This document shows, piece by piece, positions 1-12,301 of a DNA stretch of 20,000 nucleotides. The position numbers were made by a program, and so were the translations under genes. The stretch's first letter is position 1; the number at the start of each line of letters is the position of its first letter. Origin of the DNA: an uncultured virus (IMG/VR IMGVR_UViG_3300033141_004351) (taxonomy: Duplodnaviria > Heunggongvirae > Uroviricota > Caudoviricetes); the IMG/VR virus record IMGVR_UViG_3300033141_004351. One strand, given 5' to 3'. The notes under the pieces are model-generated. The model was not told where the DNA came from, did no database searches, and saw only the letters and a program-made list of their open reading frames with translations.

Positions 1-54
1 ATTTTACGGAGCTTTTCTTTTTTCTAATAACTTTTTTTCTAATTGGAGGGCATT

Positions 55-450
55 ATGGGTGACACTCATTTATCAGGACCGCTGCTCGTAGAGGCTGGAA
101 TAGAAGGTGCGAGGTTGTTTGCAACTGAAGGTGTGAAGAAGGTAGCAACGGTATATGCTGCTAATGTGGCTTTGGGCGATGTGGACTTTCCGACCGATTA
201 TATTGAGCTGGATGGGACTCTTGCTGCTGTCGGGATTACCGAATTTACCCCGACGCCCGGCAAGACGTACGTTTTTGTATGCTCAAACTCTACTGAGGCG
301 ACGACACTAACGGCTTCTTCCGGTGTAACGTTGGACGGGACTAACGATGTGGTGACTTTTGTGGCCGCAAACGATATTCTGGTATTGTTTGCAGTTTCTG
401 CGACCAAATGTTTGGTTGTGGCTAATCCGCAGACGCTGACATTCAGTTAA
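55..450 (+). CDS. Putative virion structural protein (capsid decoration/fibre-like), 131 aa
   Basis: GGAGG RBS at 45-49 precedes ATG 55, which is preferred over TTG 43. The N-terminus MGDTHLSGP resembles the 'MG.THFSGP' start of small phage structural proteins. The sequence is T/V/A-rich and beta-like. Confidence 0.5.
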   Translation: MGDTHLSGPLLVEAGIEGARLFATEGVKKVATVYAANVALGDVDFPTDYIELDGTLAAVGITEFTPTPGKTYVFVCSNSTEATTLTASSGVTLDGTNDVVTFVAANDILVLFAVSATKCLVVANPQTLTFS

Positions 451-451
451 A

Positions 452-790
452 ATGAAGCGTTACGGGGCTATACTGGCAATTTTAGGATCTCTGGTTGTCC
501 TGGGATCCGTGGTGGTGGGCGCTTATACTCAATTTACGACGAAAGAGCGCCACGTTTTAGATCACCAGGCCCAACAACTGGAAATTGCCGGTGTTTCGTT
601 ATTCCAACAGCAGGTCAGCACCCAGCAGCAGATTAAATGGTTGGAACAGGATCTTAGGGAATATTATAGAAAGTACGGGAAACCACCGTATTCTGATCCC
701 GAGGTCCAGCTTGACTATGAAAAACTGAAGCGGGATCTGGACGACGAAAGAGCTGCCCTGCGGGATATACGCAATAAGATTAAAAAATAA
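452..790 (+). CDS. Hypothetical membrane-anchored protein (N-terminal TM helix, C-terminal coiled coil); possibly lysis-related
   Basis: MKRYG followed by the hydrophobic stretch AILAILGSLVVLGSVVVGAY; the charged helical C-terminus ends in RNKIKK. Starts 2 nt after the previous stop. Confidence 0.5.
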   Translation: MKRYGAILAILGSLVVLGSVVVGAYTQFTTKERHVLDHQAQQLEIAGVSLFQQQVSTQQQIKWLEQDLREYYRKYGKPPYSDPEVQLDYEKLKRDLDDERAALRDIRNKIKK

Positions 791-801
791 AGGAGCGCAT
801 A

Positions 802-1023
802 ATGCATATAAATGATAAAGATGATAACTGGCAACATCGATCAGAGCGTATGCGTTGCAGCACTTGTATGTGGTGGGTTAAAAAAAGCTCTCTTTCTGAA
901 AATCCTACCACCGGGGCAGAAATCGGTCGTTGTCGCAAAGGGGCACCAACGATGTGCGGATGGCCGGTATTATTTGCTACCGACTGGTGTGGGCAGCACA
1001 AATTGGACGAAACTAAAATATAG
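802..1023 (+). CDS. Small four-cysteine metal-binding phage protein (CxxC...GxCR...P...WP.....WCG.H)
   Basis: AAGGAG RBS. The motifs CSTCMWW, GRCRKGAP, GWPVL and DWCGQH match a pattern common in small phage proteins, often labelled HiPIP-like. Confidence 0.65.
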   Translation: MHINDKDDNWQHRSERMRCSTCMWWVKKSSLSENPTTGAEIGRCRKGAPTMCGWPVLFATDWCGQHKLDETKI

Positions 1024-1034
1024 GAGATTAACCT

Positions 1035-1262
1035 ATGGGTTATGACGTAAAAGCCTGGCTGTCGAATAAAATTTTTGGCGGCGGCGAAAGGGGCGAGGAT
1101 CCCCAGGAGGGTGTTTCCGGGTATATGAAGCCCAAGGCCGGTGTGACAAGGAAGTTGGACGAGGCTGGCGATATTAGCGGGCCTCCTCCGCGCAGAGGCG
1201 ACACTGATGGCGATTATGATACATACACTGAAGACCGCAACCTGGATGAAGACGAAGATTAA
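1035..1262 (+). CDS. Hypothetical acidic, probably disordered protein
   Basis: AGGAG RBS at 1022-1026; D/E-rich C-terminus; stop overlaps the next start (TAATG). Confidence 0.6.
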   Translation: MGYDVKAWLSNKIFGGGERGEDPQEGVSGYMKPKAGVTRKLDEAGDISGPPPRRGDTDGDYDTYTEDRNLDEDED

Positions 1263-1480
1263 TGCGAGGGATTAGCCTTTATTTACATAATGGGCAACCG
1301 CGGCAGCTTCAACGAGTGTCGGCATCCCTGAAACCGGCTGTTGGACTGTATGAAATAAAAAAGTCAGCGCCAGCGGGAAGTTTAGCCAGTCGAAAAGCTC
1401 TGGCCCCAAAACGACAGTCGAGGGCGAAACGTAGCCAGACTGGAGCTTTGCCTGGCTGGCATCGTAAACGGAAGTGGTAA
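1262..1480 (+). CDS. Hypothetical basic protein
   Basis: TAATG coupling to the upstream gene; fills the gap up to the ATG at 1482; K/R-rich. Confidence 0.5.
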   Translation: MRGISLYLHNGQPRQLQRVSASLKPAVGLYEIKKSAPAGSLASRKALAPKRQSRAKRSQTGALPGWHRKRKW

Positions 1481-1481
1481 T

Positions 1482-1748
1482 ATGGGCAAAATAGAACATC
1501 TTGACATTTTTGATAAAACCGGATTCAGAAAGAATGTCGCGGATTTCGTTAAGGAATATGATTCGGACAATCTTGAGGCCATAGCCATTATGTACCGGCG
1601 CAAAGATGGCAGTATCCGAACTTACTGGAATGGCAATCCAGGGGAAATGTTGATTTTAAATGCAATCTTTAAAAGAGATGTTGTTGAAGACCGGTTTCCG
1701 GTTGATGACAACGCTTCTATCGATTTTGACAGTATGGACGAAGAATAA
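1482..1748 (+). CDS. Hypothetical protein directly upstream of terminase
   Basis: 88-aa ORF with an acidic tail and a TAATG overlap with terL. Not recognisable as a terminase small subunit. Confidence 0.65.
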   Translation: MGKIEHLDIFDKTGFRKNVADFVKEYDSDNLEAIAIMYRRKDGSIRTYWNGNPGEMLILNAIFKRDVVEDRFPVDDNASIDFDSMDEE

Positions 1749-3226
1749 TGGGTGAACCTGCTATCCAAATAGATCCAATGCAGCGTAAAAAACTGCGGAT
1801 CGAACAGAAAATTGCCAAGGCTAAGACGCGACAAGCTTTGGCATTGCAGGGACAAATTCGGTATCGCAAAGAAAACGAGATCGAGTTTTTTATCAGGCCC
1901 AATCCGCGCCAGGAGGAATTGCTGGAAGCCTGGACCCATCCGAGCTTTAAGGTTTTTACGTTTACCGGTGGCAATCGTCTGGGGAAAACGACAATCGGTA
2001 CGATTATTGCGATAGCAACTATGAGAGGTCGCTGGCCATGGAACAACCTGAAACTGCCATTCATGCACAATCAAATCAGGAAGATCAGATATGTTGGTCA
2101 GGACTGGGAAAAGCATATTCGCAGCGTTATTATACCGGCGCTTAAAAAATGGTGGCCCAGTCGGGTTCCCGTTAAGGTTCTCAAAAATCAGCACGGAATT
2201 GAAGCTTACTGGGAAGATCTGGACAATGGGTCTACGCTGGAGGTAATGAGCAACAAGCAGGATGTGGAACTTCACGAAGGTTGGGAGGGAGATCTTATAG
2301 TTTACGATGAACCGCCCAAGCGTAATATTCGGGTGGCCAATGCTCGTGGATTGATTGATCGCCAGGGGCGTGAGCTGTTTTGTGCCACACTTCTTAAAGA
2401 GGCATGGATCGATAAAGAGGTTATTAAAAAGAAGCTGGAGGACGGACGACCAGATCCCACTGTGTTTAATGTGCATGGTGAAATCTATGACAATGTGGGT
2501 TTTGGATTAACTTCCCAGGGTGTGGCTGATTTTGAGTCAAAGCTTAATCCGGAAGAAAAAGAAGCTCGGCTAAAAGGTATTCCGAGCTATATGTCCGGGC
2601 TGATCGCCAAAAGTTATAATCGCCAACGCAATGTGGTTGAACCTTTTACCATCCCAACGAACTGGTTGGTTGATATTGGGATCGATACTCACCCGCGCAA
2701 ACCGCAGGCACTTTTATTTATGGCTACGGATGAAAGAAATTTCAGGTACCTGTTTCATGAAATCTGGGATCCGGGTAGTGGTCACGATATCGGGGACTGG
2801 ATTGTCAGGATTATGAAAAGACGTGTACTGCGAATTAATCGAATTATCTGTGATCCACTTGCCAAGGGAGATCCCAATAACGACAATACGACCTTTGATA
2901 AAATTGCCGAAAAACTTTTTCCCTATGATATTATTCTGGAAACTGCTACAAAGGATAAAGACTCTGGAATTATCGAGATGAATGACCACTTGCTGGGTCC
3001 AAACAAAATGCCCAGTTTGTTTATATTCAATACGCTTATCCGCACTATTGACGAAATCGAGGGTTGGATGTATGGTGATGACGGAAAGCCGGTTAAAGAA
3101 GATGACGATTTTATGGAAAATCTGTATCGGATGCTTTTGTTGGATACGGAGTATGTGCCACCCGAAGATGAAGTTGACGAAGAAGAAGCAGATAACGATA
3201 CTATTAACCCAATAACGGGGTATTAA
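1748..3226 (+). CDS. terL: Terminase large subunit
   Basis: Q-motif (PNPRQ), Walker A GGNRLGKT, Walker B LIVYDE, coupling motif AT. RNase H-like nuclease motifs GIDTHP, ICDP and DDFME. Lies immediately upstream of the portal. Confidence 0.93.
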   Translation: MGEPAIQIDPMQRKKLRIEQKIAKAKTRQALALQGQIRYRKENEIEFFIRPNPRQEELLEAWTHPSFKVFTFTGGNRLGKTTIGTIIAIATMRGRWPWNNLKLPFMHNQIRKIRYVGQDWEKHIRSVIIPALKKWWPSRVPVKVLKNQHGIEAYWEDLDNGSTLEVMSNKQDVELHEGWEGDLIVYDEPPKRNIRVANARGLIDRQGRELFCATLLKEAWIDKEVIKKKLEDGRPDPTVFNVHGEIYDNVGFGLTSQGVADFESKLNPEEKEARLKGIPSYMSGLIAKSYNRQRNVVEPFTIPTNWLVDIGIDTHPRKPQALLFMATDERNFRYLFHEIWDPGSGHDIGDWIVRIMKRRVLRINRIICDPLAKGDPNNDNTTFDKIAEKLFPYDIILETATKDKDSGIIEMNDHLLGPNKMPSLFIFNTLIRTIDEIEGWMYGDDGKPVKEDDDFMENLYRMLLLDTEYVPPEDEVDEEEADNDTINPITGY

Positions 3227-3228
3227 TA

Positions 3229-5418
3229 ATGCCAGCTGCAACAACCACCAGGAATCCAATGGATACAAGCCAGCTTCCAACAGAAGATGTGCCGATAGAA
3301 GAAGCCGAGCTGCCTTCACACGAAGGTGTTGATATTTTAGATATGATGCTTCAGGCGGAAAATGTTGCCGAGGAGCTAACCGAGACTGAACTTTTAACCA
3401 TTGGCCGTACAGTGAAAGACGAATATCAGATCGACAAAGACTCAAGATCCGACTGGGAAAAACGGATGGTAGATGCCCTGAAGCTGGCACGCCAGCTGAG
3501 AGCGACAAAAACCTGGGGCGGAGAAGTAACCTCAAATATTAAATACCCGTTAATTTCTACAGCCTGTATTCAGTTTTCATCCAGAGCCTATGGTAATATT
3601 GTTAAGGGTGAAGATTACGTTAAGGTTAATGTGTTCGGAGCTGACGAAAGCGGAGAGAAGAAAAAACGGGCAGAGCGCGTGAGGGTTCATATGAACGCCC
3701 AGCTGTCGGCTGCCACTACCGGATGGGAAGACGAGATGGACCAGTTGTTGATTTCCATGCCGCTTTTAGGCTGTGCCTTCAAGAAAACCTATCGAAACTT
3801 TATCGATAACACTACAATTTCCGAATATGTGGATCCTGAACAGCTGATAGTTAACTATTGGGCTAAGTCTATGGAGACGGCTCCCAGGGCTACGCATGTT
3901 GTTGAGTTGACCAAAAACAGCTATTTAGAGCATACTCGATCCGGTTTATGGCGTGACGCTGGCATTGAGAATAAACAACCGGATACCTCTGAAGATGAAA
4001 AGAAAAATAAAAATGATAATGTTCAGGATACTGAAGCTACCTATATATTTTTAGAGCAACACCGTTGGCTGGATCTGGACGGTGACGGTTATAAAGAGCC
4101 CTATATTGTAACAATTCATAAAGCGTCACAGGAAGTGATGCGGATTGTTCCGCGCTTTAGAGCGACTTCTGTTCTTCGCAATTCCAACAATGAAATCATT
4201 AAGATTATACCTGATCAGTATTTTACCCGTTATCTTTTCTTTCCGGACTTTGATGCTAACTTTTATGGTCTGGGTTTCGGAATCCTGCTTTCTCCAGTCA
4301 ATGAAACCGTTAATTCAATTATAAACCAGTTGCTTGACTCTGGTACAATTCAAAATCGCCAGTCCGGCTTTATTAATCGCGGAATCCGCTTAATGAAAGC
4401 CGGTGGATCAGGATCGGTTAAATTTAAAGCTGGTGAATGGAAATTTATTAAATCCGCAGGAGACGACCTGCGTAAAAGCATTTTCCCCCTGCCTACCAAA
4501 GAGCCGTCGGCTACGCTGTTTCAATTGTTAGGACTAATGTTAGAGGCCGCCAAGGACCTGGCCTCACAAGCAGAAGTTCTGTCGGGAGAGCAGCGTCAGC
4601 CGAATGTGCCCGCTACCACTACTCTGGCATTGATCGAGCAGGGGCTTAAGGTTTTTTCTTCAATTTATAAAAGGATTCATCGAGCGCTGAAAAGTGAATT
4701 TATTAAAATTCAACGCTTGAACATGCTTTATACCACCCCTGAAGAATATAATCGGATTCTTGATCTTTACGACGAAGGGGAATTTGATCCCAGGATTGAT
4801 TATGATCCTTCCGATCTGGACATTGGACCGGTAAGTTCCACAGCTGATGTTTCCGATACTCAAAAAATTATAAAGGCTGAAGCCTTGATGCAGGTTATGG
4901 GCAAGGGCCTGGACGACCAGAAAATCCTGTATCGATATTTAGACGCGATTCAGATAGATAACTGGAAAGAGTTAATACCTGAAGAACCGCCACCCAATAT
5001 TCCTTTAATTATGCACCAACAGCAGATGTCTATCGAAATGGCCAAGGTTCAACAGGCCGAAAGAAAGCTGGACTTAGAGGAAAAAGAGGTAATGATAAAA
5101 GATGCTGAGACCTTTTACAAAATGGTCAAGCTTCAGGCAGAGGCAGTTAAAGCTATGGCCCTGGCCGAAGCGGCAGAGATGGGGCCACAGATAGAAGAAT
5201 ATAAAACACAGGTCGGTCATTTGGCCGCTGTGATTAATGCTAAAAGGGTGGATCTGGAAGCAGATCTTAAAAAGAAACAATACGAGGATCAACAGCGCAG
5301 AGAAGCGCAGCAAGGTGGTGGCCAACAGGGTGCCGGAGAAGGACAGCCGATGCCACCAGGAGGCATGCCACAGCAAGGAGGAGCAGGTGCAGCAGTCCAA
5401 CCAGGAGGAGCTATCTAA
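3229..5418 (+). CDS. Portal protein
   Basis: 729 aa after terL. Motifs SRSDWE, GCAFKKTY, LEQHRWLDLDGDGYKEPYIVT, FYGLGFG, INQLLDSGT, KEPSATLFQLLG and ATTTLALIEQGLKVFSSIYKR are typical of podovirus-type portals. Long helical and Q/G/P-rich C-terminus. Confidence 0.92.
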   Translation: MPAATTTRNPMDTSQLPTEDVPIEEAELPSHEGVDILDMMLQAENVAEELTETELLTIGRTVKDEYQIDKDSRSDWEKRMVDALKLARQLRATKTWGGEVTSNIKYPLISTACIQFSSRAYGNIVKGEDYVKVNVFGADESGEKKKRAERVRVHMNAQLSAATTGWEDEMDQLLISMPLLGCAFKKTYRNFIDNTTISEYVDPEQLIVNYWAKSMETAPRATHVVELTKNSYLEHTRSGLWRDAGIENKQPDTSEDEKKNKNDNVQDTEATYIFLEQHRWLDLDGDGYKEPYIVTIHKASQEVMRIVPRFRATSVLRNSNNEIIKIIPDQYFTRYLFFPDFDANFYGLGFGILLSPVNETVNSIINQLLDSGTIQNRQSGFINRGIRLMKAGGSGSVKFKAGEWKFIKSAGDDLRKSIFPLPTKEPSATLFQLLGLMLEAAKDLASQAEVLSGEQRQPNVPATTTLALIEQGLKVFSSIYKRIHRALKSEFIKIQRLNMLYTTPEEYNRILDLYDEGEFDPRIDYDPSDLDIGPVSSTADVSDTQKIIKAEALMQVMGKGLDDQKILYRYLDAIQIDNWKELIPEEPPPNIPLIMHQQQMSIEMAKVQQAERKLDLEEKEVMIKDAETFYKMVKLQAEAVKAMALAEAAEMGPQIEEYKTQVGHLAAVINAKRVDLEADLKKKQYEDQQRREAQQGGGQQGAGEGQPMPPGGMPQQGGAGAAVQPGGAI

Positions 5419-5653
5419 GGAAAGTTTCGGTTTGTGGAAAACACTGCCGATCACAAACGAGATTCTTAAAGGACTTCGGGAAGAAAAGCGTCTATTACAG
5501 ATAACGCTTAGTACCGGCCAATCTCTTTTGGGTGACGCTGGAGCCACAGCTGAAAAGACAGCCGAGTTAGTCGGCATGATTAAGGGGATTGATTTAGTGT
5601 TAAATATTGAATATGAGGATGGGGAAGGAGGAACTTATGGATTGTCCGATTGA
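5387..5653 (+). CDS. Small conserved hypothetical protein between portal and GroES (about 88 aa)
   Basis: AAGGAGG (5375-5381) precedes an in-frame GTG at 5387, which is more plausible than the 5237 start deep inside the portal. Contains F..WK..P.T and G.I.G....L motifs. Confidence 0.65.
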   Translation: MQQSNQEELSKESFGLWKTLPITNEILKGLREEKRLLQITLSTGQSLLGDAGATAEKTAELVGMIKGIDLVLNIEYEDGEGGTYGLSD

Positions 5654-5987
5654 TCCGGAAGGAACTAAGGTAGTGATTGTGCCCGACAAGGTTGGGGAAA
5701 AGACAGCCGGTGGGCTTATTATTGTACCATCAGGTACACGGCAGCAGGAGCAAAACGCTGTTACCCAGGGTACGCTGGTGGCCATTGGCCCCAGAGCTGA
5801 AATCTGTTGGAATAACGGAGATGGCAAGGAGATAGCGGCAAAGATAGGCGATAGGGTTATTTATGCCAGATACGGTGGCACGCAGTTTAACTGGGGGAAG
5901 AAGACTTTTCAACTTCTTCAGGACCAGGATGTAGTGGGCAAAATGCTGGAAGAACCGCCAGCCGTTGATCTTGTCTTAAAACAATAA
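5637..5987 (+). CDS. groES: Phage-encoded co-chaperonin GroES (Cpn10)-like protein
   Basis: AAGGAGG RBS before ATG 5637. Cpn10 motifs: P.G.KVVI, mobile loop EKTAGGLIIVP, GTLVAIGP, KIGDRVIYARYGGT, LLQDQDVVG. Confidence 0.9.
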   Translation: MDCPIDPEGTKVVIVPDKVGEKTAGGLIIVPSGTRQQEQNAVTQGTLVAIGPRAEICWNNGDGKEIAAKIGDRVIYARYGGTQFNWGKKTFQLLQDQDVVGKMLEEPPAVDLVLKQ

Positions 5988-5999
5988 AGGAGAGGAATT

Positions 6000-6920
6000 A
6001 TGGATGGATTACAAGGAGAAGCAGCGCCGGAGGTTATAGTTACTACCGGCGACAAACCCCTTGCCGGAGACGGCACTGGGGTGCAAAAAGAAGCAGGGGG
6101 TGGAGAGAAACAGTATGGTGAAGTCGAGGTTCTGGCAATGAAGATGGGTTGGAATCCGGAGCATGACGAAAACTCCGGTAGACCATTTAAGAGCGCTGAT
6201 CAGTATATCATAGATTCAAAACAGATCCAGGATACTACCGTAAAGACGCTCAATTCTTTAAAGGCCACTAACGAGGAACTGGTGGCTGGTATGCAGAACT
6301 TAAAGACGACCTATACTAAAGTTGCTAAAGTAGAACAGGCCAGAATCGACAACGAGATTGCAAATCTTAAGGAAAAGCGGGATGTGCATATCGAAAATTC
6401 TGACAAGGGGAAAGTCAAAGAAGTCGATGGCCAAATTGAAAATTTGCAAAAATCGAAAAAAGACATGGACGAGCCGGCTGCACAGCAGCAAGCTCAGCAA
6501 CAGACAGGAACGGGAGACTTTAAAGCAAAATCCGCACAGTGGATGGCTGAAAACTCCTGGTACGGCAAAAATACAGAGATGACAAACTATATAGATGCTC
6601 AAAGTGAGCGCTTTAGAGGTTTGCCGGACGATACTTATTTTGAGAAACTGTCCGAAGTTGCCATAACCATGTTTCCAGAAGCATTTAAAGGAAAAGCTTT
6701 GTCAGGCCAGAAGGTAGTTACTGGCCAGCAAAATCAGCAACAGACTGTAGTTGGTGGGCAGACCCGCCAAACCGGTCCTGGAGCTAAACAAAAATATACC
6801 ATTAATGATCTGTCGCCCGATCAGCAGAAGTTTGCCAGGTTTTATGAAAAACAAAAGGTGATGACAGTGCAGGAGTATGTGGACGAACAGGTCAAAATAG
6901 GTAACATCATAGGAAGGTAG
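6000..6920 (+). CDS. Putative capsid scaffolding protein
   Basis: Located between portal and capsid genes. AMKMGWNP motif, long charged coiled coil, W..ENSWYG motif, Q-rich linkers and a C-terminal helix-turn-helix-like segment (DLSPDQQKFA...EYV). Confidence 0.75.
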   Translation: MDGLQGEAAPEVIVTTGDKPLAGDGTGVQKEAGGGEKQYGEVEVLAMKMGWNPEHDENSGRPFKSADQYIIDSKQIQDTTVKTLNSLKATNEELVAGMQNLKTTYTKVAKVEQARIDNEIANLKEKRDVHIENSDKGKVKEVDGQIENLQKSKKDMDEPAAQQQAQQQTGTGDFKAKSAQWMAENSWYGKNTEMTNYIDAQSERFRGLPDDTYFEKLSEVAITMFPEAFKGKALSGQKVVTGQQNQQQTVVGGQTRQTGPGAKQKYTINDLSPDQQKFARFYEKQKVMTVQEYVDEQVKIGNIIGR

Positions 6921-6944
6921 CCGTAAAGACGGCGAGGAGGAATT

Positions 6945-7586
6945 GTGGACCAAGAAAACCAAGAACACAAAATAGTGCTTCGTACAAATGGCTTACCATT
7001 TGCCACAGCAAGGGCAGCGGATTTGCGTATTGCTGCTATGGCCAAGCAGGGTAAAGATTATCAGAGGATCCCCTGGACGGCGCAGGACGACGGAAAACCG
7101 GTTGAGGGCTATGCTCTTGAGCGTATTGATTCCGAAGTGCGTCGGAAAGAAAGGATCCCTGTAGGACAAAGGAATCGGCTAACAGCGCCGAGACGGCCAG
7201 GCTATAAACGCAGATTTGTGAATGTTCAACCAGGCAGAGTCCAAATGTTTGAGGATGCAGGATATCAGATGGTTACCGACCAAACTTATGATCCGGATAA
7301 TCCCGGGGTAATAAAGGCCGGAAGCCAACCGAGAGGAACGACACCACTTGGATCTGCGGTTGTAGAGGAAGTTGGCGGTGGTCAACAGGCTGTTTTAATG
7401 GAGATACGGGAAGACTGGTTCAATGAAGATCAGGCGAGAAAAGCAAGACGCCTGGACGAAATGGAAGCTCAAATTAAACGTAGACCTAAAAAAAATGGCC
7501 ACTATGGGAGTGTTAAAGCTGAATCAGCCATGACCCCTCCGCCGAAAGATGTGGCGGATATAGATATGGATCAGGGACATTTTTGA
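6945..7586 (+). CDS. Conserved hypothetical head-module protein
   Basis: GAGGAGG RBS with GTG start. The R-rich motif RPGYKRRFVN..GR...F.DAGY and the AVLMEI..DWF.EDQ motif are typical of the gene following scaffolds in this type of phage. Confidence 0.7.
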   Translation: MDQENQEHKIVLRTNGLPFATARAADLRIAAMAKQGKDYQRIPWTAQDDGKPVEGYALERIDSEVRRKERIPVGQRNRLTAPRRPGYKRRFVNVQPGRVQMFEDAGYQMVTDQTYDPDNPGVIKAGSQPRGTTPLGSAVVEEVGGGQQAVLMEIREDWFNEDQARKARRLDEMEAQIKRRPKKNGHYGSVKAESAMTPPPKDVADIDMDQGHF

Positions 7587-7632
7587 TTGTTTTATACTTT
7601 TGCAGCTGGCCGTGAAGTAGGAGGTAAAAATT

Positions 7633-8226
7633 ATGGCTAATATTGATCGTCCAAGAGGGCTACGTCCGGTCAAGCATATGAACGGAAATCCCTATAATGG
7701 CGAAATAAATCCTTACTTTGTGCCAGCATCCGATGCAGTAGCACTTTTCATTGGTGATCCGGTAACTCTTGCCGGAGCAGCCGATGCGTCAGGTAAATAC
7801 CCCACTGTAAAACAAGCAGTGGCGGGTACGACCAACCTGATCGCCGGTGTTGTTATGGGCTTTGGTCTCACACCAGAGATCGCAGCTATGGTTAACAGCC
7901 TTGAAAAGCGCTATCGTCTTGCCAATGAAGATATGTATGTCTTTGTGGCAGACGACATGGATCTTATTTTTGAGATCCAGGAGGTCTCCGGAGGAACGGC
8001 ATTAACCGCTGCCCAAATCGGGAACAATGCACCGATTGTAGTTGGCAGTGGGAACGTTGACACGGGACTTTCCGGCGTAGAACTGAATAACGTCGGAGAG
8101 ACAGCTGCCACTGAACAGATCAGAATCTTACGCCTGGCACCAGGTTTGGATAATGAGCTGGGCGAACATGCCAAGTGGTGGGTATTTATTAACGAACACG
8201 CATTTAACCAGGAGCTTGGGGTTTAA
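7633..8226 (+). CDS. Putative capsid decoration/minor capsid protein
   Basis: AGGAGG RBS. N-terminus MANIDRPRGLRPV...GNPYNG plus ALFIGDPV, V.DD.DLIFEIQ and V.INEH motifs. Directly upstream of the MCP. Confidence 0.7.
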   Translation: MANIDRPRGLRPVKHMNGNPYNGEINPYFVPASDAVALFIGDPVTLAGAADASGKYPTVKQAVAGTTNLIAGVVMGFGLTPEIAAMVNSLEKRYRLANEDMYVFVADDMDLIFEIQEVSGGTALTAAQIGNNAPIVVGSGNVDTGLSGVELNNVGETAATEQIRILRLAPGLDNELGEHAKWWVFINEHAFNQELGV

Positions 8227-8254
8227 CCTGGCGAACCGATAAGGGAGGTATGTT

Positions 8255-8299
8255 ATGCCTGTTATTACAACTGGATCATTCGCCAAGGACCTATGGCCT
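8255..8299 (+). CDS. Major capsid protein, exon 1 (MPVITTGSFAKDLWP)
   Basis: Strong RBS AGGGAGG at 8242-8248 and ATG at 8255. Fifteen codons ending in CCT, whose U forms the U.G pair of intron P1. Joins in frame to GGC GTT AAC at 9145, giving AKDLWP|GVNKWYG. Confidence 0.88.
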
Positions 8300-9144
8300 A
8301 AAACGTTGGGCCTTCAGATGGCAACATCTGTAGCAAATCCCTTTAATTCAGTGAAACTCCTAACGTAAAGACGAGGACAATACTGAGCGAAGCATGAAAC
8401 GATACGGAATCATATATAGGATTAAAAACAGGGTGAATGGTAAATCTTATTTTGGCCAGACTACCCAGGGTATAGCTCGCCGAAAAGGTGAGCATATTTA
8501 TCGTTTTAAATCCAAAGAGCGTGACCATAAGATATATTTAGCTTTTAAAAAATATGGTCTGGACGCATTTGATTTTCAAGTGTTTTGTAGTTGTTTCGAC
8601 CAAGACGGTTTAAACACTACAGAAACGGCGATGATCAAAGAGTATGATACCTATCAAAACGGTTATAATATGACAATAGGTGGAGATTTTGTGAGTGATG
8701 AAACCAGGGAAAAGCTCAGAAAGATATTTACTGGGCGCAAGATTACCTGGGGACAAAAAATTTCAAAATCTAAAAAAGGGGTTCCAACCGGCAGAAATAT
8801 GTCGGGTCGAAAAAGTCCCCGCCACAAAACCTTTATTATTACTGATCCCAATGGCGTTGAGCATGTTGCAATGGGATTAAGGCAATTTTGTCGGAGATGG
8901 AAACGCGACAAATTATTCCACAACAATCTATTGCAAGTAGCGATGGGTCGATGGAACCATTATAAAGGTTATAAATGCCGTTATCATGAACGTGCAACGA
9001 CTATTCCGCAAGGAAGTACGGCCAAGTGGCTGGAAACGGGGGAGGCCCTGAAACGGGCTGTGATATAGTCTGATCTGCATGGAAACATGCAGCTGCCGAA
9101 AGGCGGGGCAAGATTAGAGCGAATTTGCCTGAACATTATCAATG
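8300..9144 (+). mobile_element. Self-splicing group I intron (IA2-like, 845 nt) in the major capsid gene
   Basis: P1 GGCCU(8295-99)/GGGCC(8308-12) with U.G at the 5' splice site. P10 AACGUU(8302-07)/GGCGUU(9145-50). P2 CAGAUG-GCAA-CAUCUG. P3 UCCCUU(8338-43)/GGGGGA(9038-43). P4 UUCAGUG(8347-53)/UACUGAG(8381-87). R element GUGCAACGACUA and S element UGAUAUAGUC give P7 GACUA(8999-9003)/UAGUC(9066-70). P7.1 UUCC-GCAA-GGAA, P7.2, P8 GCCC..GGGC, P9 CUGCAUG-GAAA-CAUGCAG, P9.1 CUGCC-GAAA-GGCGG and P9.2 are present. Terminal omega-G at 9144. Confidence 0.93.
8394..9068 (+). CDS. Intron-encoded GIY-YIG homing endonuclease
   Basis: GIIY-x10-YFGQT variant of GIY-YIG, with the conserved Arg (ARRKGEH), Glu (LNTTE) and GYN motif. 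Followed by a basic NUMOD-like DNA-binding region (SDETREKLRK, KISKSKKG). Inserted in the P6 loop of the intron. Confidence 0.92.
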   Translation: MKRYGIIYRIKNRVNGKSYFGQTTQGIARRKGEHIYRFKSKERDHKIYLAFKKYGLDAFDFQVFCSCFDQDGLNTTETAMIKEYDTYQNGYNMTIGGDFVSDETREKLRKIFTGRKITWGQKISKSKKGVPTGRNMSGRKSPRHKTFIITDPNGVEHVAMGLRQFCRRWKRDKLFHNNLLQVAMGRWNHYKGYKCRYHERATTIPQGSTAKWLETGEALKRAVI

Positions 9145-10008
9145 GGCGTTAACAAATGGTACGGGCTTGCCTATTCTGAGTATCCGACAGAATTTACGGA
9201 GATCTTTGACGAGGAGCAATCCCAACTGGCCTTTGAGGAAGACGTAGGAATTTCGTCTTTTGGTCTGGCCCAAGAGAAACCTGAAGGACGAGGGACAGCT
9301 TACGACGACGCTCGTCAGGGTTTCATTGATAGATATGTTCATGGGACCTACAGTTTAGGTTTCATCATCACACGAGAGATGTGGGAAGATGGGATCGCGG
9401 GGACTGTGGCATTGAAAAGAGCCAGGGCTTTGGCGTTTTCAATCCGCCAAACCAAGGAAATACTGGGTGCGAATATCCTCAATCGCGCCTTTAACTCGGA
9501 TTATGTTTTCGGTGATGGTGTAGAGATGATTTCTACCCTGCATCCCAATGTAGCGGGAGGCGTGTGGTCGAATGAATTGGAAACACCGGCTGATTTATCT
9601 GAAGCTGCACTTGAGCAAGCGTGCATTGATATTGCCAATTTCACTAATGATCGAGGTCTTCGGATTGCTGTACGGCCAATGAAGTTGGTCGTGGCTGTGG
9701 ATAATACTTTTGAGTCCACCAGAATCCTGAGATCTGAACTGCGTGTGACATCGGCAGACAATGACATCAACGCAATTCGTGCGTTGGGTATGATCCCAGA
9801 AGTGGTTATTAATCATTATCTTACCGACCAGGATAGTTGGTATATCAAAACAGATTGCCCAGACGGTTTGAAGTATTTTAACCGTCGAAGCGACGAGTTT
9901 GATACCGATAATGATTTTGATACCGAGAACGCCCGTTTCAAATCTACATTCAGGGCTTCCTGGGGCGCTTCCGACAAGCGTGGTATATACGGATCTGCTG
10001 GCGCTTAA
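9145..10008 (+). CDS. Major capsid protein, exon 2 (spliced product 302 aa)
   Basis: Motifs FEEDVGISSFGLAQEKPEG, YSLGFIIT.E..ED, LAFSIRQTKE..GANILNRAF, DLSEAALEQA.I.I..F.NDRG, NHYLTD.D.W.I.TD.P.G and DFDT.N..FK..R.S.G.SD.RG.YGS.GA are characteristic of an HK97-fold (Mu gpT-like) MCP family. The ATG at 9142 has no RBS. Confidence 0.92.
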   Translation, partial: GVNKWYGLAYSEYPTEFTEIFDEEQSQLAFEEDVGISSFGLAQEKPEGRGTAYDDARQGFIDRYVHGTYSLGFIITREMWEDGIAGTVALKRARALAFSIRQTKEILGANILNRAFNSDYVFGDGVEMISTLHPNVAGGVWSNELETPADLSEAALEQACIDIANFTNDRGLRIAVRPMKLVVAVDNTFESTRILRSELRVTSADNDINAIRALGMIPEVVINHYLTDQDSWYIKTDCPDGLKYFNRRSDEFDTDNDFDTENARFKSTFRASWGASDKRGIYGSAGA

Positions 10009-10028
10009 AAACCGCCTGTGGCTAAAAT

Positions 10029-10103
10029 AGGGGTTGTGGCCTGTGCTGCAACCTCTTGCCCAGGACAGGTTTAGGTTCTTGCGCTCCTTGCCCATCCTGG
10101 GCA
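10029..10103 (+). other. Tandem RNA hairpins downstream of the MCP stop
   Basis: AGGGGUUGUGGC(10029-40)/GCUGCAACCUCU(10045-56) forms a 12-bp stem with G.U pairs. It is followed directly by UGCCCAGGA(10057-65)/UCCUGGGCA(10095-103). No adjacent U-tract. Confidence 0.7.
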
Positions 10104-10139
10104 CTTACACTATAACTGTTTTTAAAACGGAGAATACTC

Positions 10140-10745
10140 ATGCGTCCGAAACAAATAAATTTCGATACGCTTGCCAATGATACTGATTACCTGGCATCCT
10201 CACAGCAATTAGCAGCTGCCGGTTATCTTGCACTGCTTCCTGCGGCAGCCGGAAAATTTATACCGCAAAAGGTCACGCTTACATCCGCTGGCAATATCGC
10301 AACGGTTGTATTTACTATTGTTGGTCTGGGTCAAAACGGTGAACCTCAAACAGAGGACATCACTGGTATAAATGGTAATACTGTAGCGTCCACGCTTTAT
10401 TACACTGCGATTACTTCTATCTATGGAGACGCTGGTACAGGTGCAAGTAGTGTTGAGGCTGGTATCAATGGTATAGCGAGTTTTATATATCCTGTAGACC
10501 CATATTGCCACGGCAATCGGATAATGGTCAGCGGTACTTTTGTTGCCACCTACACAGTGTTTTGGTCAAACCAAAAGATCCTGGCTGGAGAAACACCCGT
10601 TTGGGTGGCTGAAGCCGATCAAACCGACAAGACTGGTGTAACCGGATTGCATTACGATGGTGGTATCACAGCGTTTAAATATGAGATAACCGCTTATACC
10701 AGTGGTGCGCCGGTATTTTCGCATAGTGACCAAAAGTCTGTATAA
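10140..10745 (+). CDS. Putative virion structural protein
   Basis: GGAG RBS. T/G/A-rich with the motif VTLTSAGN....FTIVG..QNG....E.I.G.N...V. First gene after the MCP. Confidence 0.65.
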   Translation: MRPKQINFDTLANDTDYLASSQQLAAAGYLALLPAAAGKFIPQKVTLTSAGNIATVVFTIVGLGQNGEPQTEDITGINGNTVASTLYYTAITSIYGDAGTGASSVEAGINGIASFIYPVDPYCHGNRIMVSGTFVATYTVFWSNQKILAGETPVWVAEADQTDKTGVTGLHYDGGITAFKYEITAYTSGAPVFSHSDQKSV

Positions 10746-10761
10746 CCTATGGGGGTAAGCC

Positions 10762-11586
10762 GTGACAAGACACACCGACAGGGAGTATTATCCTGGCGAC
10801 CACCTGGTTATCTGCGACCGTTGCGGATTCAAACATTACCGGTCTCAATGCCGTAAGGAATGGCAGGGCTGGTTAGTTTGTAACAGCTGCTGGGAACCAC
10901 GTCATCCACAGGATATAACGCCACCATATCGTCTGGATCGTCAGTGGGTAGATGATGGTCGTCCAAGGCCGATAGACGATTTTGATACGCTGTCTAATGA
11001 AGTCTGGACTGTTCAGGACTGGACTACCTATATTGAAACCGATCCCAATAGCCGCCTGACGGTGGCTGCCAACCAGGTAGACCTTGCCTTAAATCAAAAT
11101 GCTGATGCCAGGATTTTCAAAAATTTTGGAAAAGACTTTTTTACCGACCGTTTTGGTTTCCGGATTACACTAAATGCCACCCATGCCGGAGGGGCTCTTT
11201 CGGGCCTAATGGACCTTTTACGTCTAACTGACGAAGTGGCAAATCCATCCGCACCGACTATTTATCTTCAGGCCAGCATCAATGATACCCCTGATATTGA
11301 CTTAGGTCTTTATGCTGGGGGGACAATCCAGAGTCAGATTACCGGTCTCTTTACCGGTGTCGATCTTTTCATTGAGCTAACCTTTGACAACGGTCAATTT
11401 ACACTAACCCTTTATACAGATGGCACCTACACAACAATCCTGCAACAGTCTACGGCTGATTGGTCGTGGGGCTATCGTTATTATGATTATTTGTTTTCAC
11501 CTGGATTTTTCAGTTTAGGTGTGGACGAGCTTCAGGCCAATGCGACCGTAACCAACATGCAGGTCAGAAGCATTACCTTGGTTTAA
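10762..11586 (+). CDS. Putative virion protein: N-terminal Cys4 Zn-finger-like domain fused to a beta-sandwich-like domain
   Basis: GTG start after GGGG. ICDRCGFK...RKEW.G..VCNSCWEPRHPQ...RP.P in the first ~70 aa, then ~200 aa of aromatic, beta-rich sequence. Confidence 0.65.
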   Translation: MTRHTDREYYPGDHLVICDRCGFKHYRSQCRKEWQGWLVCNSCWEPRHPQDITPPYRLDRQWVDDGRPRPIDDFDTLSNEVWTVQDWTTYIETDPNSRLTVAANQVDLALNQNADARIFKNFGKDFFTDRFGFRITLNATHAGGALSGLMDLLRLTDEVANPSAPTIYLQASINDTPDIDLGLYAGGTIQSQITGLFTGVDLFIELTFDNGQFTLTLYTDGTYTTILQQSTADWSWGYRYYDYLFSPGFFSLGVDELQANATVTNMQVRSITLV

Positions 11587-11596
11587 AGGAGAAGTT

Positions 11597-12301
11597 ATGG
11601 CACTTACAATCGATCCGCTGGAGTTCATGCCGAATATCGCTCCGGCTTTTAACCTTGCACCGACTGCGATCATCAGATCATGGATTATAGAAGCGTGCCG
11701 TAAATTCTGTTGGGAAAGCTTACTGTGGCGCGAACAGGTCGATCCTGTTTCTGTGGTGGCTGCTCAGGCTTTTTACGATCTGACCGACGATGCTATTGTT
11801 TTGGAAGGTACCAGCACCCAGGTTAATTCCATCGCTGACATTGTTTCGTTGGAACACATAGAGCTGGCTCAAATTGATCTTGAGACTTCCTCAGAGCGAT
11901 ATCTCGACGAGAACGAGCGCGGATGGAGGCAGAGAGTAGAGTCGAGGCCCAGGCGCTTCATAATGGACGCAAAGAGGCAATTGCGACTGGTTTATATACC
12001 TACTCAGGCTATTGCTGATGGCCTGGATATGTGGTTGACATTAATGCCGGCAAGATCAGCTACCTTAATTGAACAGTTTATTTATGATGATTACCGGCTG
12101 GCCATCGAGAATTGCGCTATGGCCTTTATGCTTGAAATGCCGGGGGTGCCCTGGAGTGATCCGAAAGGGGCTCTGTTTTACTGGACTAAATGGGAGATGT
12201 ATATGGAAGATGCCACGGATAAGAAGACATCCGGCTATACTGATCATCAGGCATCATATTATTTCCAACCGGACCATCGAAGCGCATCCGGTGGTGTGTA
12301 G
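11597..12301 (+). CDS. Putative head-tail adaptor / tail tubular protein A-like
   Basis: AAGGAG RBS. Motifs F.P.I.P.....P, A...FC..S..WR, L.L..IP, L.P.R.A, L.MPG.PWSDP..A..Y. Post-capsid position. Confidence 0.65.
   Translation: MALTIDPLEFMPNIAPAFNLAPTAIIRSWIIEACRKFCWESLLWREQVDPVSVVAAQAFYDLTDDAIVLEGTSTQVNSIADIVSLEHIELAQIDLETSSERYLDENERGWRQRVESRPRRFIMDAKRQLRLVYIPTQAIADGLDMWLTLMPARSATLIEQFIYDDYRLAIENCAMAFMLEMPGVPWSDPKGALFYWTKWEMYMEDATDKKTSGYTDHQASYYFQPDHRSASGGV

Follow-up and report, generated by a model that had tools for sequence, protein, structure and literature searches.

Where does the major capsid protein (MCP) of an uncultured tailed phage begin, and what is the DNA that lies inside its gene? 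This question is raised by a stretch of 20,000 nucleotides (nt) from the IMG/VR virus record IMGVR_UViG_3300033141_004351 (Caudoviricetes), called the window here. Gene callers start its capsid gene at an ATG at 9142. An earlier note on this DNA proposed that the gene starts at 8255 and is interrupted after codon 15 by an intact group I intron. In this study, we found that positions 8300-9144 are a group I intron with an intact-looking core. It is very probably a mobile intron in the capsid gene, equipped with a GIY-YIG endonuclease and spliced out to give a product of 302 amino acids (aa). All features of the locus described below lie on the plus strand.

The insert lies between codons 15 and 16 of a capsid gene

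The sequence AAGGGAGG at 8241-8248 was read as a Shine-Dalgarno sequence, 6 nt ahead of ATG 8255. Exon 1 (8255-8299) has 15 codons, MPVITTGSFAKDLWP, and its final base, U8299, is the U of the 5' splice site. Exon 2 (9145-10008) has 287 codons and a stop. With 8299 joined to 9145 the frame is preserved, and 15 + 287 codons encode 302 aa. The frame of ATG 9142 reads M-GVNKWYG and continues as far as the same stop at 10006-10008. The frame of exon 1 runs on into the insert, where it is open for 66 nt and stops at 8366-8368, in the loop of P5a. An intein was ruled out by this stop within the insert. The ribosome-binding site (RBS), the 15-codon exon and the in-frame join to GVNKWYG at 9145 had been described in the earlier note, and they hold. 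The closest full-length capsid homologues are likewise 302 aa long, with the N-terminus MAVITTGSFAKDLWPGVNKWYG, and the same junction is present in relatives without the insert.

These intronless relatives, the loci L003-L005, have 94% capsid identity to the window and carry ...CTATGGCCT|GGCGTTAAC... as unbroken DNA (at greater length, ...GACCTATGGCCT|GGCGTTAACAAATGG...). The match is lost if the boundary is moved a single base in either direction; the insert is therefore exactly 8300-9144, 845 nt, separating codons 15 and 16. The contigs L002 and L001 have the intron, with 0 and 2 mismatches to the window in 6861 nt. Intron-plus and intron-minus alleles coexist in one contig collection.

Homologues had been expected to be continuous across LWP|G, and 116 of the 120 best capsid homologues are continuous over the junction. 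Three others start exactly there (P0001, P0033 and P0073) and one starts further in (P0023). P0001 is the window's own gene call, which stands in the protein database with 288 aa; this is the truncation at 9142 that the earlier note foresaw for automated annotation. Residues K11, L13, P15 and G16 are invariant across 35 capsid homologues. We also pooled 195 capsid loci from three capsid-based IMG/VR scans, with one contig counted twice. The N-terminus was contiguous in 183 of them, 7 had predicted introns, 1 was seemingly frameshifted, and in 4 the N-terminus lay off the locus. The frameshifted N-terminus is at L140:1051-1110 (MGIINSSSFAKSLWPG, then out of frame), perhaps because of a sequencing error or of programmed frameshifting.

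Over a tract of 71 nt that spans the insertion site, from 44 nt upstream to 26 nt downstream, the window was 100% identical to L003-L005, with flanks at about 88%. It is entered as window positions 8255-8325 and 9145-9170. This could be the footprint of a homing site with co-conversion, or ordinary conservation of the 5' end of the gene. The more distant L006 has one mismatch over nearly the same stretch, and the identity tract therefore does not separate homing from plain conservation.

The interrupted gene belongs to an uncultured tailed phage and encodes its HK97-fold major capsid protein. When exon 2 was used as the query, 7031 relatives were obtained at an expectation value (E) <= 0.001 (8000 candidates scored). 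Exon 2 matched the Pfam families PF25209 (Phage_capsid_4; 29 bits, cut-off 27) and PF10124 (Mu gpT; 29 bits, cut-off 20.1), and its matches to annotated capsid genes from cultured phages reached 53% identity. Hosts of these cultured phages include Alcaligenes, Roseobacter, Pelagibacter, Caulobacter and Planktothrix. An AlphaFold model of an intronless sibling capsid had a predicted local distance difference test score (pLDDT) of 74, and its top Foldseek matches were T5 pb8, HK97 and encapsulins (E ~1e-7). In this model, residues 6-26 form a single N-terminal helix, and the intron position P15/G16 falls in mid-helix.

The insert is a group I intron

The earlier note had named a U.G splice site, P10, a P3/P4/P7 core and a terminal G, and all of these were found, the helices with canonical pairs. 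P1 (8295-8312) is formed by exon GGCCU at 8295-8299 and guide GGGCC at 8308-8312, in both the fold and a hand model, and contains the U8299-G8308 wobble typical of a group I 5' splice site. Six base pairs (bp) make up P10, in which 9145-9150 of exon 2 pair with 8302-8307 (4 Watson-Crick and 2 G-U). At the 3' end the intron closes with G9144 (omega-G), where the boundary is fixed by the intronless alleles; this G is also the G of the in-frame ATG 9142-9144 used by gene callers.

Both core domains, P3-P8 and P4-P6, are present together with P7 and J8/7. P2 (8315-8330, 6 bp, GCAA loop) was found by the RF00028 alignment, covariation and the fold. The 5' strand of P3, UCCCUU at 8338-8343, has canonical pairs with 9038-9043, and its position agrees with the RF00028 alignment. 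In P4-P5-P5a (8347-8387), P4 is 8347-8353/8381-8387 and P5 is 8358-8361/8374-8377, from compensatory changes, the fold and the hand model. The 3' strand of P6/P6a (8984-8995) has its partner at 8387-8397 in the minimum-energy fold. P7 starts with GACUA at 8999-9003 (RF00028, covariation and hand model). It is followed by P7.1 (9004-9015, GCAA loop) and P7.2 (9019-9032), both seen in the fold and in compensatory changes, and then by the 3' strand of P3 and the P8 hairpin (9044-9059; covariation and hand model). J8/7 and the 3' strand of P7 form GAUAUAGUC at 9062-9070, with P7 3' at 9066-9070. All 8 aligned introns have the same P7 pairing GACUA/UAGUC and the same GAUAUAGUC. P9 (9075-9092, GAAA), P9.1 (9093-9106, GAAA) and P9.2 (9107-9129) complete the 3' part, from covariation and the fold. 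The extra hairpins that separate P7 from the 3' strand of P3, P7.1 and P7.2, are what we take to be the IA-type architecture, in the naming of Michel and Westhof. Since both were found in the fold and covary in relatives, we call the intron IA-like, at the level of the IA type only.

Covariation was examined with RNAalifold on alignments of the window intron and seven other introns. P7, P7.1, P7.2, P8, P9, P9.1 and P9.2 were recovered with compensatory change in 30 of 41 pairs, and P2, P4 and P5 with compensatory change in 12 of 16. For the hand model and the minimum-energy fold, 8401-8980 was removed by coordinates. In the hand model, P1, P2, P3, P4, P5, P5a, P6a, P7, P7.1, P7.2, P8, P9, P9.1, P9.2 and P10 all consist of canonical pairs. 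The fold of this core yielded P1, P2, P4, P5, P5a, P6, P6a, P7.1, P7.2, P9 and P9.1; it lacked P3, P8 and P9.2, as expected because the core is pseudoknotted. The two ends of the intron are more stable than shuffled sequences (z -2.8 and -4.2).

An E-value search of 8200-9250 with RF00028 gave two half-hits. The 5' half-hit (8290-8555, 25.7 bits, E 3.1e-4) aligned P1, P2, P3, P4 and P5 well, and the 3' half-hit (8868-9092, 29.4 bits, E 2.4e-5) did so for GACUA, GAUAUAGUC and P9. The same kind of search over the whole window found no second intron. Over the window's own assembly, RF00028 gave only the same two half-hits and one match at E 0.88 on another contig. In a blastn search in distant mode, the core halves were found in 854 phage records at about 78-81% identity, none covering 80% or more of the query. 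Among these records are a DNA polymerase gene annotated as spliced and a feature annotated as Intron_gpI.

The intron carries a predicted homing-endonuclease gene

The earlier note had overlooked an open reading frame (ORF) at 8394-9068. It takes up 675 of the 845 nt of the intron and encodes 224 aa. The ORF belongs to the GIY-YIG family in Pfam (PF01541; 27.4 bits, cut-off 22.6) and matches the PHROG 7168 homing-endonuclease family (E 1.5e-24). Its only solved relative is the catalytic domain of I-TevI (1ln0/1mk0; E 0.01, 18 bits), and in this alignment it keeps counterparts of R27, E75 and N90. Relatives in cultured phages reach at most 38% identity. A scan of viral contigs with this single protein returned only the window's own phage.

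The ORF starts in the P6 loop, with its AUG inside the CAUG/CAUG helix of P6a, and ends at a UAG within GAUAUAGUC. It reads through P7, P7.1, P7.2, the 3' strand of P3 and P8, which make up its final ~70 nt. Because the AUG is sequestered in P6a and the last ~70 nt are catalytic core, translation of the endonuclease and folding of the ribozyme probably exclude each other on a single RNA.

The td intron of phage T4 is of IA type with P7.1/P7.2 and carries a GIY-YIG ORF (I-TevI) in its P6 region. The window's intron has the same architecture. However, td is a nucleotide metabolism gene, whereas the window's intron sits in a structural gene and its ORF runs into the catalytic core. As the 18-bit match indicates, the two endonucleases are only distantly related.

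Related introns occupy the same capsid site

We searched metagenome contigs with the degenerate pattern 'ATG + GV(N/H)...YG' and found three further introns at exactly the window's capsid site. The intron at L296:1241-1503 (263 nt) has no ORF and scores 92.7 bits with RF00028. That at L297:819-1503 (685 nt) contains a LAGLIDADG ORF (L297:917-1426, Pfam E 1.8e-7). The third, L298:95-866 (772 nt, 61.9 bits with RF00028), contains an HNH ORF (L298:181-792, Pfam E 2e-7). The L296 and L297 capsids are each 87% identical to the window's. The L298 capsid is of the P0073 type, and the truncated start of P0073 is therefore explained by a same-site intron; the truncation of P0033 probably has the same origin.

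Identities were calculated over two aligned stretches, the intron ends with adjacent exon. The window's intron was 83-85% identical to L297, 75-82% to L296 and 66-70% to L298, and 50-65% to other introns. The endonuclease ORFs of the window, L297 and L298 all stop at the same UAG in GAUAUAGUC, which is invariant in 4 of 4 aligned same-site introns, and they have in common a tail encoded by the ribozyme (ETG...VI). These introns represent one ribozyme lineage at one capsid site, with a GIY-YIG, a LAGLIDADG, an HNH or no ORF, and they show endonuclease turnover. Scans of viral contigs with P0033 and P0073 returned only relatives of 70% identity or less, none with an intron at the window's site. 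The degenerate pattern gave 11 loci on viral contigs, 2 from the window's phage and 9 in unrelated genes.

Other insertion sites in the capsid family

Introns were also found at other positions of the capsid gene, with boundaries assigned from the U-G rule, the terminal G and frame restoration alone. Seven nt upstream of the window's site, 22 IMG/VR contigs carry GIY-YIG group I introns of ~790 nt, in which exon 1 ends ...KAL and exon 2 starts WPG. Examples are L153:1701-2493, L187:782-1564 and L204:1701-2493; the 19 others are L213-L219, L222, L223, L225, L227, L229, L230, L232 and L254-L258. This is the commonest interruption of the window's capsid family in IMG/VR, and its endonucleases are 39-41% identical to the window's. 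An abiF RNA motif (RF03085, 50.8 bits, cut-off 37) was seen at L187:2454-2490, just 3' of the capsid gene.

About 8 nt upstream of the window's site, with a tentative boundary, L192 has an insert of ~822 nt (L192:1671-2492) with a LAGLIDADG_2 ORF (E 4.3e-17). It gave no RF00028 match at E <= 0.001, hence its class as an intron is only putative. Thirteen nt downstream, after the first base of the W20 codon, L056:2227-2498 is an ORF-less intron (82.9 bits) that has the guide UUGGGCCUU in common with the window. Also 13 nt downstream, from L207:~1895 to the contig end, lies an intron that carries the GIY-YIG gene most closely related to the window's endonuclease, with 55% identity over residues 1-132. 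Among the 80 best endonuclease-related loci, 27 flank the window's capsid family.

The other-site introns were considered as the nearest ribozyme kin of the window's intron. They were rejected, being 50-65% identical and no closer than introns of unrelated phages. An origin of the L056 intron from the window's intron by ectopic reverse splicing was also dropped, apart from the guide that both have.

Genomic context

Neighbours of the capsid gene are a terminase large subunit, an SU10-type portal and virion proteins (Pfam, PHROG). A promoter and terminator scan of 7500-10300 found sites no more numerous than in shuffled sequences. Only positions 1-11709 of the window coincide with contig C332, on its reverse strand, and the remainder lies outside it. 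C332 belongs to a 399-contig, 3.99-Mb assembly that was binned with the window. The presence of a phage structural module in a bacterial-genome bin may or may not be a pointer to the host.

Discussion

We propose the following mechanism for the capsid intron. The late transcript would fold into the ribozyme, and an external guanosine would attack after U8299, which the guide GGGCC keeps in P1. Once released, exon 1 would attack after G9144, with exon 2 positioned by P10, and the ligated message would be translated into the 302-aa capsid protein. The predicted GIY-YIG endonuclease would presumably cut intronless capsid alleles in co-infections, and the intron would be copied in. Since it has an endonuclease ORF, coexists with intronless alleles and belongs to a series with endonuclease turnover, the intron is best read as a selfish, near-neutral mobile element and not as a regulator.

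Some points weigh against a spliced intron. Splicing, self-splicing and endonuclease activity are all predicted from anatomy. The open 66 nt of the exon-1 frame mean that ribosomes could in principle disturb P1-P5 before splicing, and initiation at the in-frame ATG 9142 might in theory yield a protein that lacks 15 residues. At the gathering cut-off of RF00028, which is 50 bits, Rfam returned no match anywhere in the window. This low score is due to the 675-nt ORF in the P6 loop, which parts the two halves of the ribozyme. The annotated ORF-bearing intron of Escherichia phage vB_EcoM_4HA13, a related ribozyme, likewise stays below the cut-off because of its ORF (27.3 bits), whereas ORF-less relatives score 71.9, 83.6 and 106.2 bits and the ORF-less sister L296, at the identical capsid site, scores well above it. 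The covariance-model check suggested in the earlier note therefore had a divided outcome. The two half-hits stand and the ORF controls explain the miss, but no score was obtained at 50 bits, and the absence of a covariance-model hit, which the note had named as refuting, was formally half borne out.

The earlier note suggested that the intron could gate capsid synthesis, by timing or by metabolism. Group I splicing requires guanosine and Mg2+, and capsid output would depend on splicing if exon 1 is needed. However, close relatives manage without the intron, and the N-terminus was uninterrupted in 183 of the 195 capsid loci. The intron also has a homing endonuclease, and the same ribozyme occurs with three unrelated endonuclease families or with none, which is the pattern of a selfish element. 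A co-opted gate is therefore very unlikely.

Slightly less probable again is that the insert is decayed and does not splice, so that the capsid protein is made from ATG 9142 without its first 15 residues or the allele is dead. That ATG is in frame, gene callers use it for P0001, and P0033 and P0073 begin at the same place; splicing itself is what we infer. However, inspection of the sequence upstream of ATG 9142 revealed no purine-rich ribosome-binding site, and a truncation at P15/G16 would halve the predicted helix 6-26. For these two reasons, a capsid protein of unspliced origin is unlikely to exist or to function. The N-terminal segment is kept in 116 of the 120 homologues, with K11, L13 and P15 invariant, and the P0073-type start is itself accounted for by the L298 intron. 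Every core pairing is canonical, and both exons and the endonuclease ORF are intact. An assembly artefact that joined an endonuclease gene into the capsid gene would suit a metagenomic source in which positions 1-11709 of the window make up a single contig in a bin of 399, but it is extremely unlikely, because the same arrangement recurs in two more contigs of other assemblies (one with 2 mismatches elsewhere), homologous introns occupy the same site in three unrelated metagenome contigs, and the boundaries are exactly those of a group I intron. These considerations leave the mobile, spliced group I intron as the preferred reading.

In its ribozyme, the window's intron resembles a DNA polymerase intron of phage 4HA13 (MN136198.2), an E. 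coli myovirus. Both belong to the same ribozyme family (~79% over both core halves), both have an ORF that begins within the P6 loop at an identical GCGAAGCAUGAAA, and they have the same 3' tail (...UGAACA...AAUG|G). They differ in that the 4HA13 intron lies in a DNA polymerase gene, whose coding sequence is annotated as a join, and carries an HNH endonuclease.

The suggestion of the earlier note that MCP introns are uncommon in phages did not survive, because introns in capsid genes of mycobacteriophage LittleE and of crAss-like phages are already in print. In LittleE, splicing of a capsid-gene intron was demonstrated by reverse transcription PCR (Pope et al. 2013, PMC3706429). Like the window's, it is a ~0.8-kb MCP intron with a putative homing endonuclease, was found through intronless relatives, and has a U closing exon 1 and a G closing the intron. 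The ORF of LittleE is LAGLIDADG-like and on the opposite strand, its host is actinobacterial and its capsid family is unrelated. The LittleE intron was called 'most likely group I', whereas in the window the ribozyme class is firm and splicing is predicted. The same paper cites a capsid-gene intron in lactococcal phage Tuc2009. Capsid-gene group I introns were also reported in the crAss-like Delta and Zeta groups (Yutin et al. 2021, PMC7886860). These too are phages from metagenomes in which endonuclease-bearing introns break up the capsid gene and complicate annotation, but they belong to another phage order and capsid family, have up to 4 interruptions per gene, and their introns were recognised by protein domains only. 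Homologous group I introns invaded by different endonuclease families, GIY-YIG and H-N-H, were described in Bacillus cereus-group prophages (Tourasse and Kolsto 2008, PMC2504315). The prophage introns interrupt different genes, whereas the window's ribozyme lineage varies at a single capsid site. A 2025 survey mentions over 100 phage introns (PMC11878797), and PMC6669764 has nothing on capsid introns. Our full-text searches, which were not family-specific, found no paper on introns in the window's capsid family or at its site.

A further possibility, which we regard as doubtful, is that homing elements compete for the 21-22 nt encoding the invariant part of the N-terminal helix, as a shared landing pad, and that ORF read-through into the core is a selected switch. 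The GIY-YIG, LAGLIDADG and HNH ORFs at the window's site all lie in the P6 loop and run in the same frame into the catalytic core, and related GIY-YIG genes are present at three of the capsid intron positions. If read-through is selected and is not an accidental inheritance, a switch by which endonuclease translation and splicing of the capsid mRNA exclude each other would be built in. In that case, the series would offer a natural setting in which to study how endonucleases turn over and how introns are retargeted within a late gene of a phage.

The window's intron is a further example of a known selfish element and opens no new principle. It matters for annotation, because automated calls that begin this capsid at 9142 miss 15 conserved residues. 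The same truncation problem arises in at least 22 IMG/VR contigs with the upstream-site intron, and truncated calls affect capsid-based phage classification and the structural models built on them. The finding is also a well-documented case in which the late gene with the highest expression contains a mobile ribozyme, in a phage lineage with cultured relatives that grow on aquatic and environmental bacteria. The series of introns at one site, ORF-less or with GIY-YIG, LAGLIDADG or HNH genes, provides compact material for the gain and loss of endonucleases in introns.

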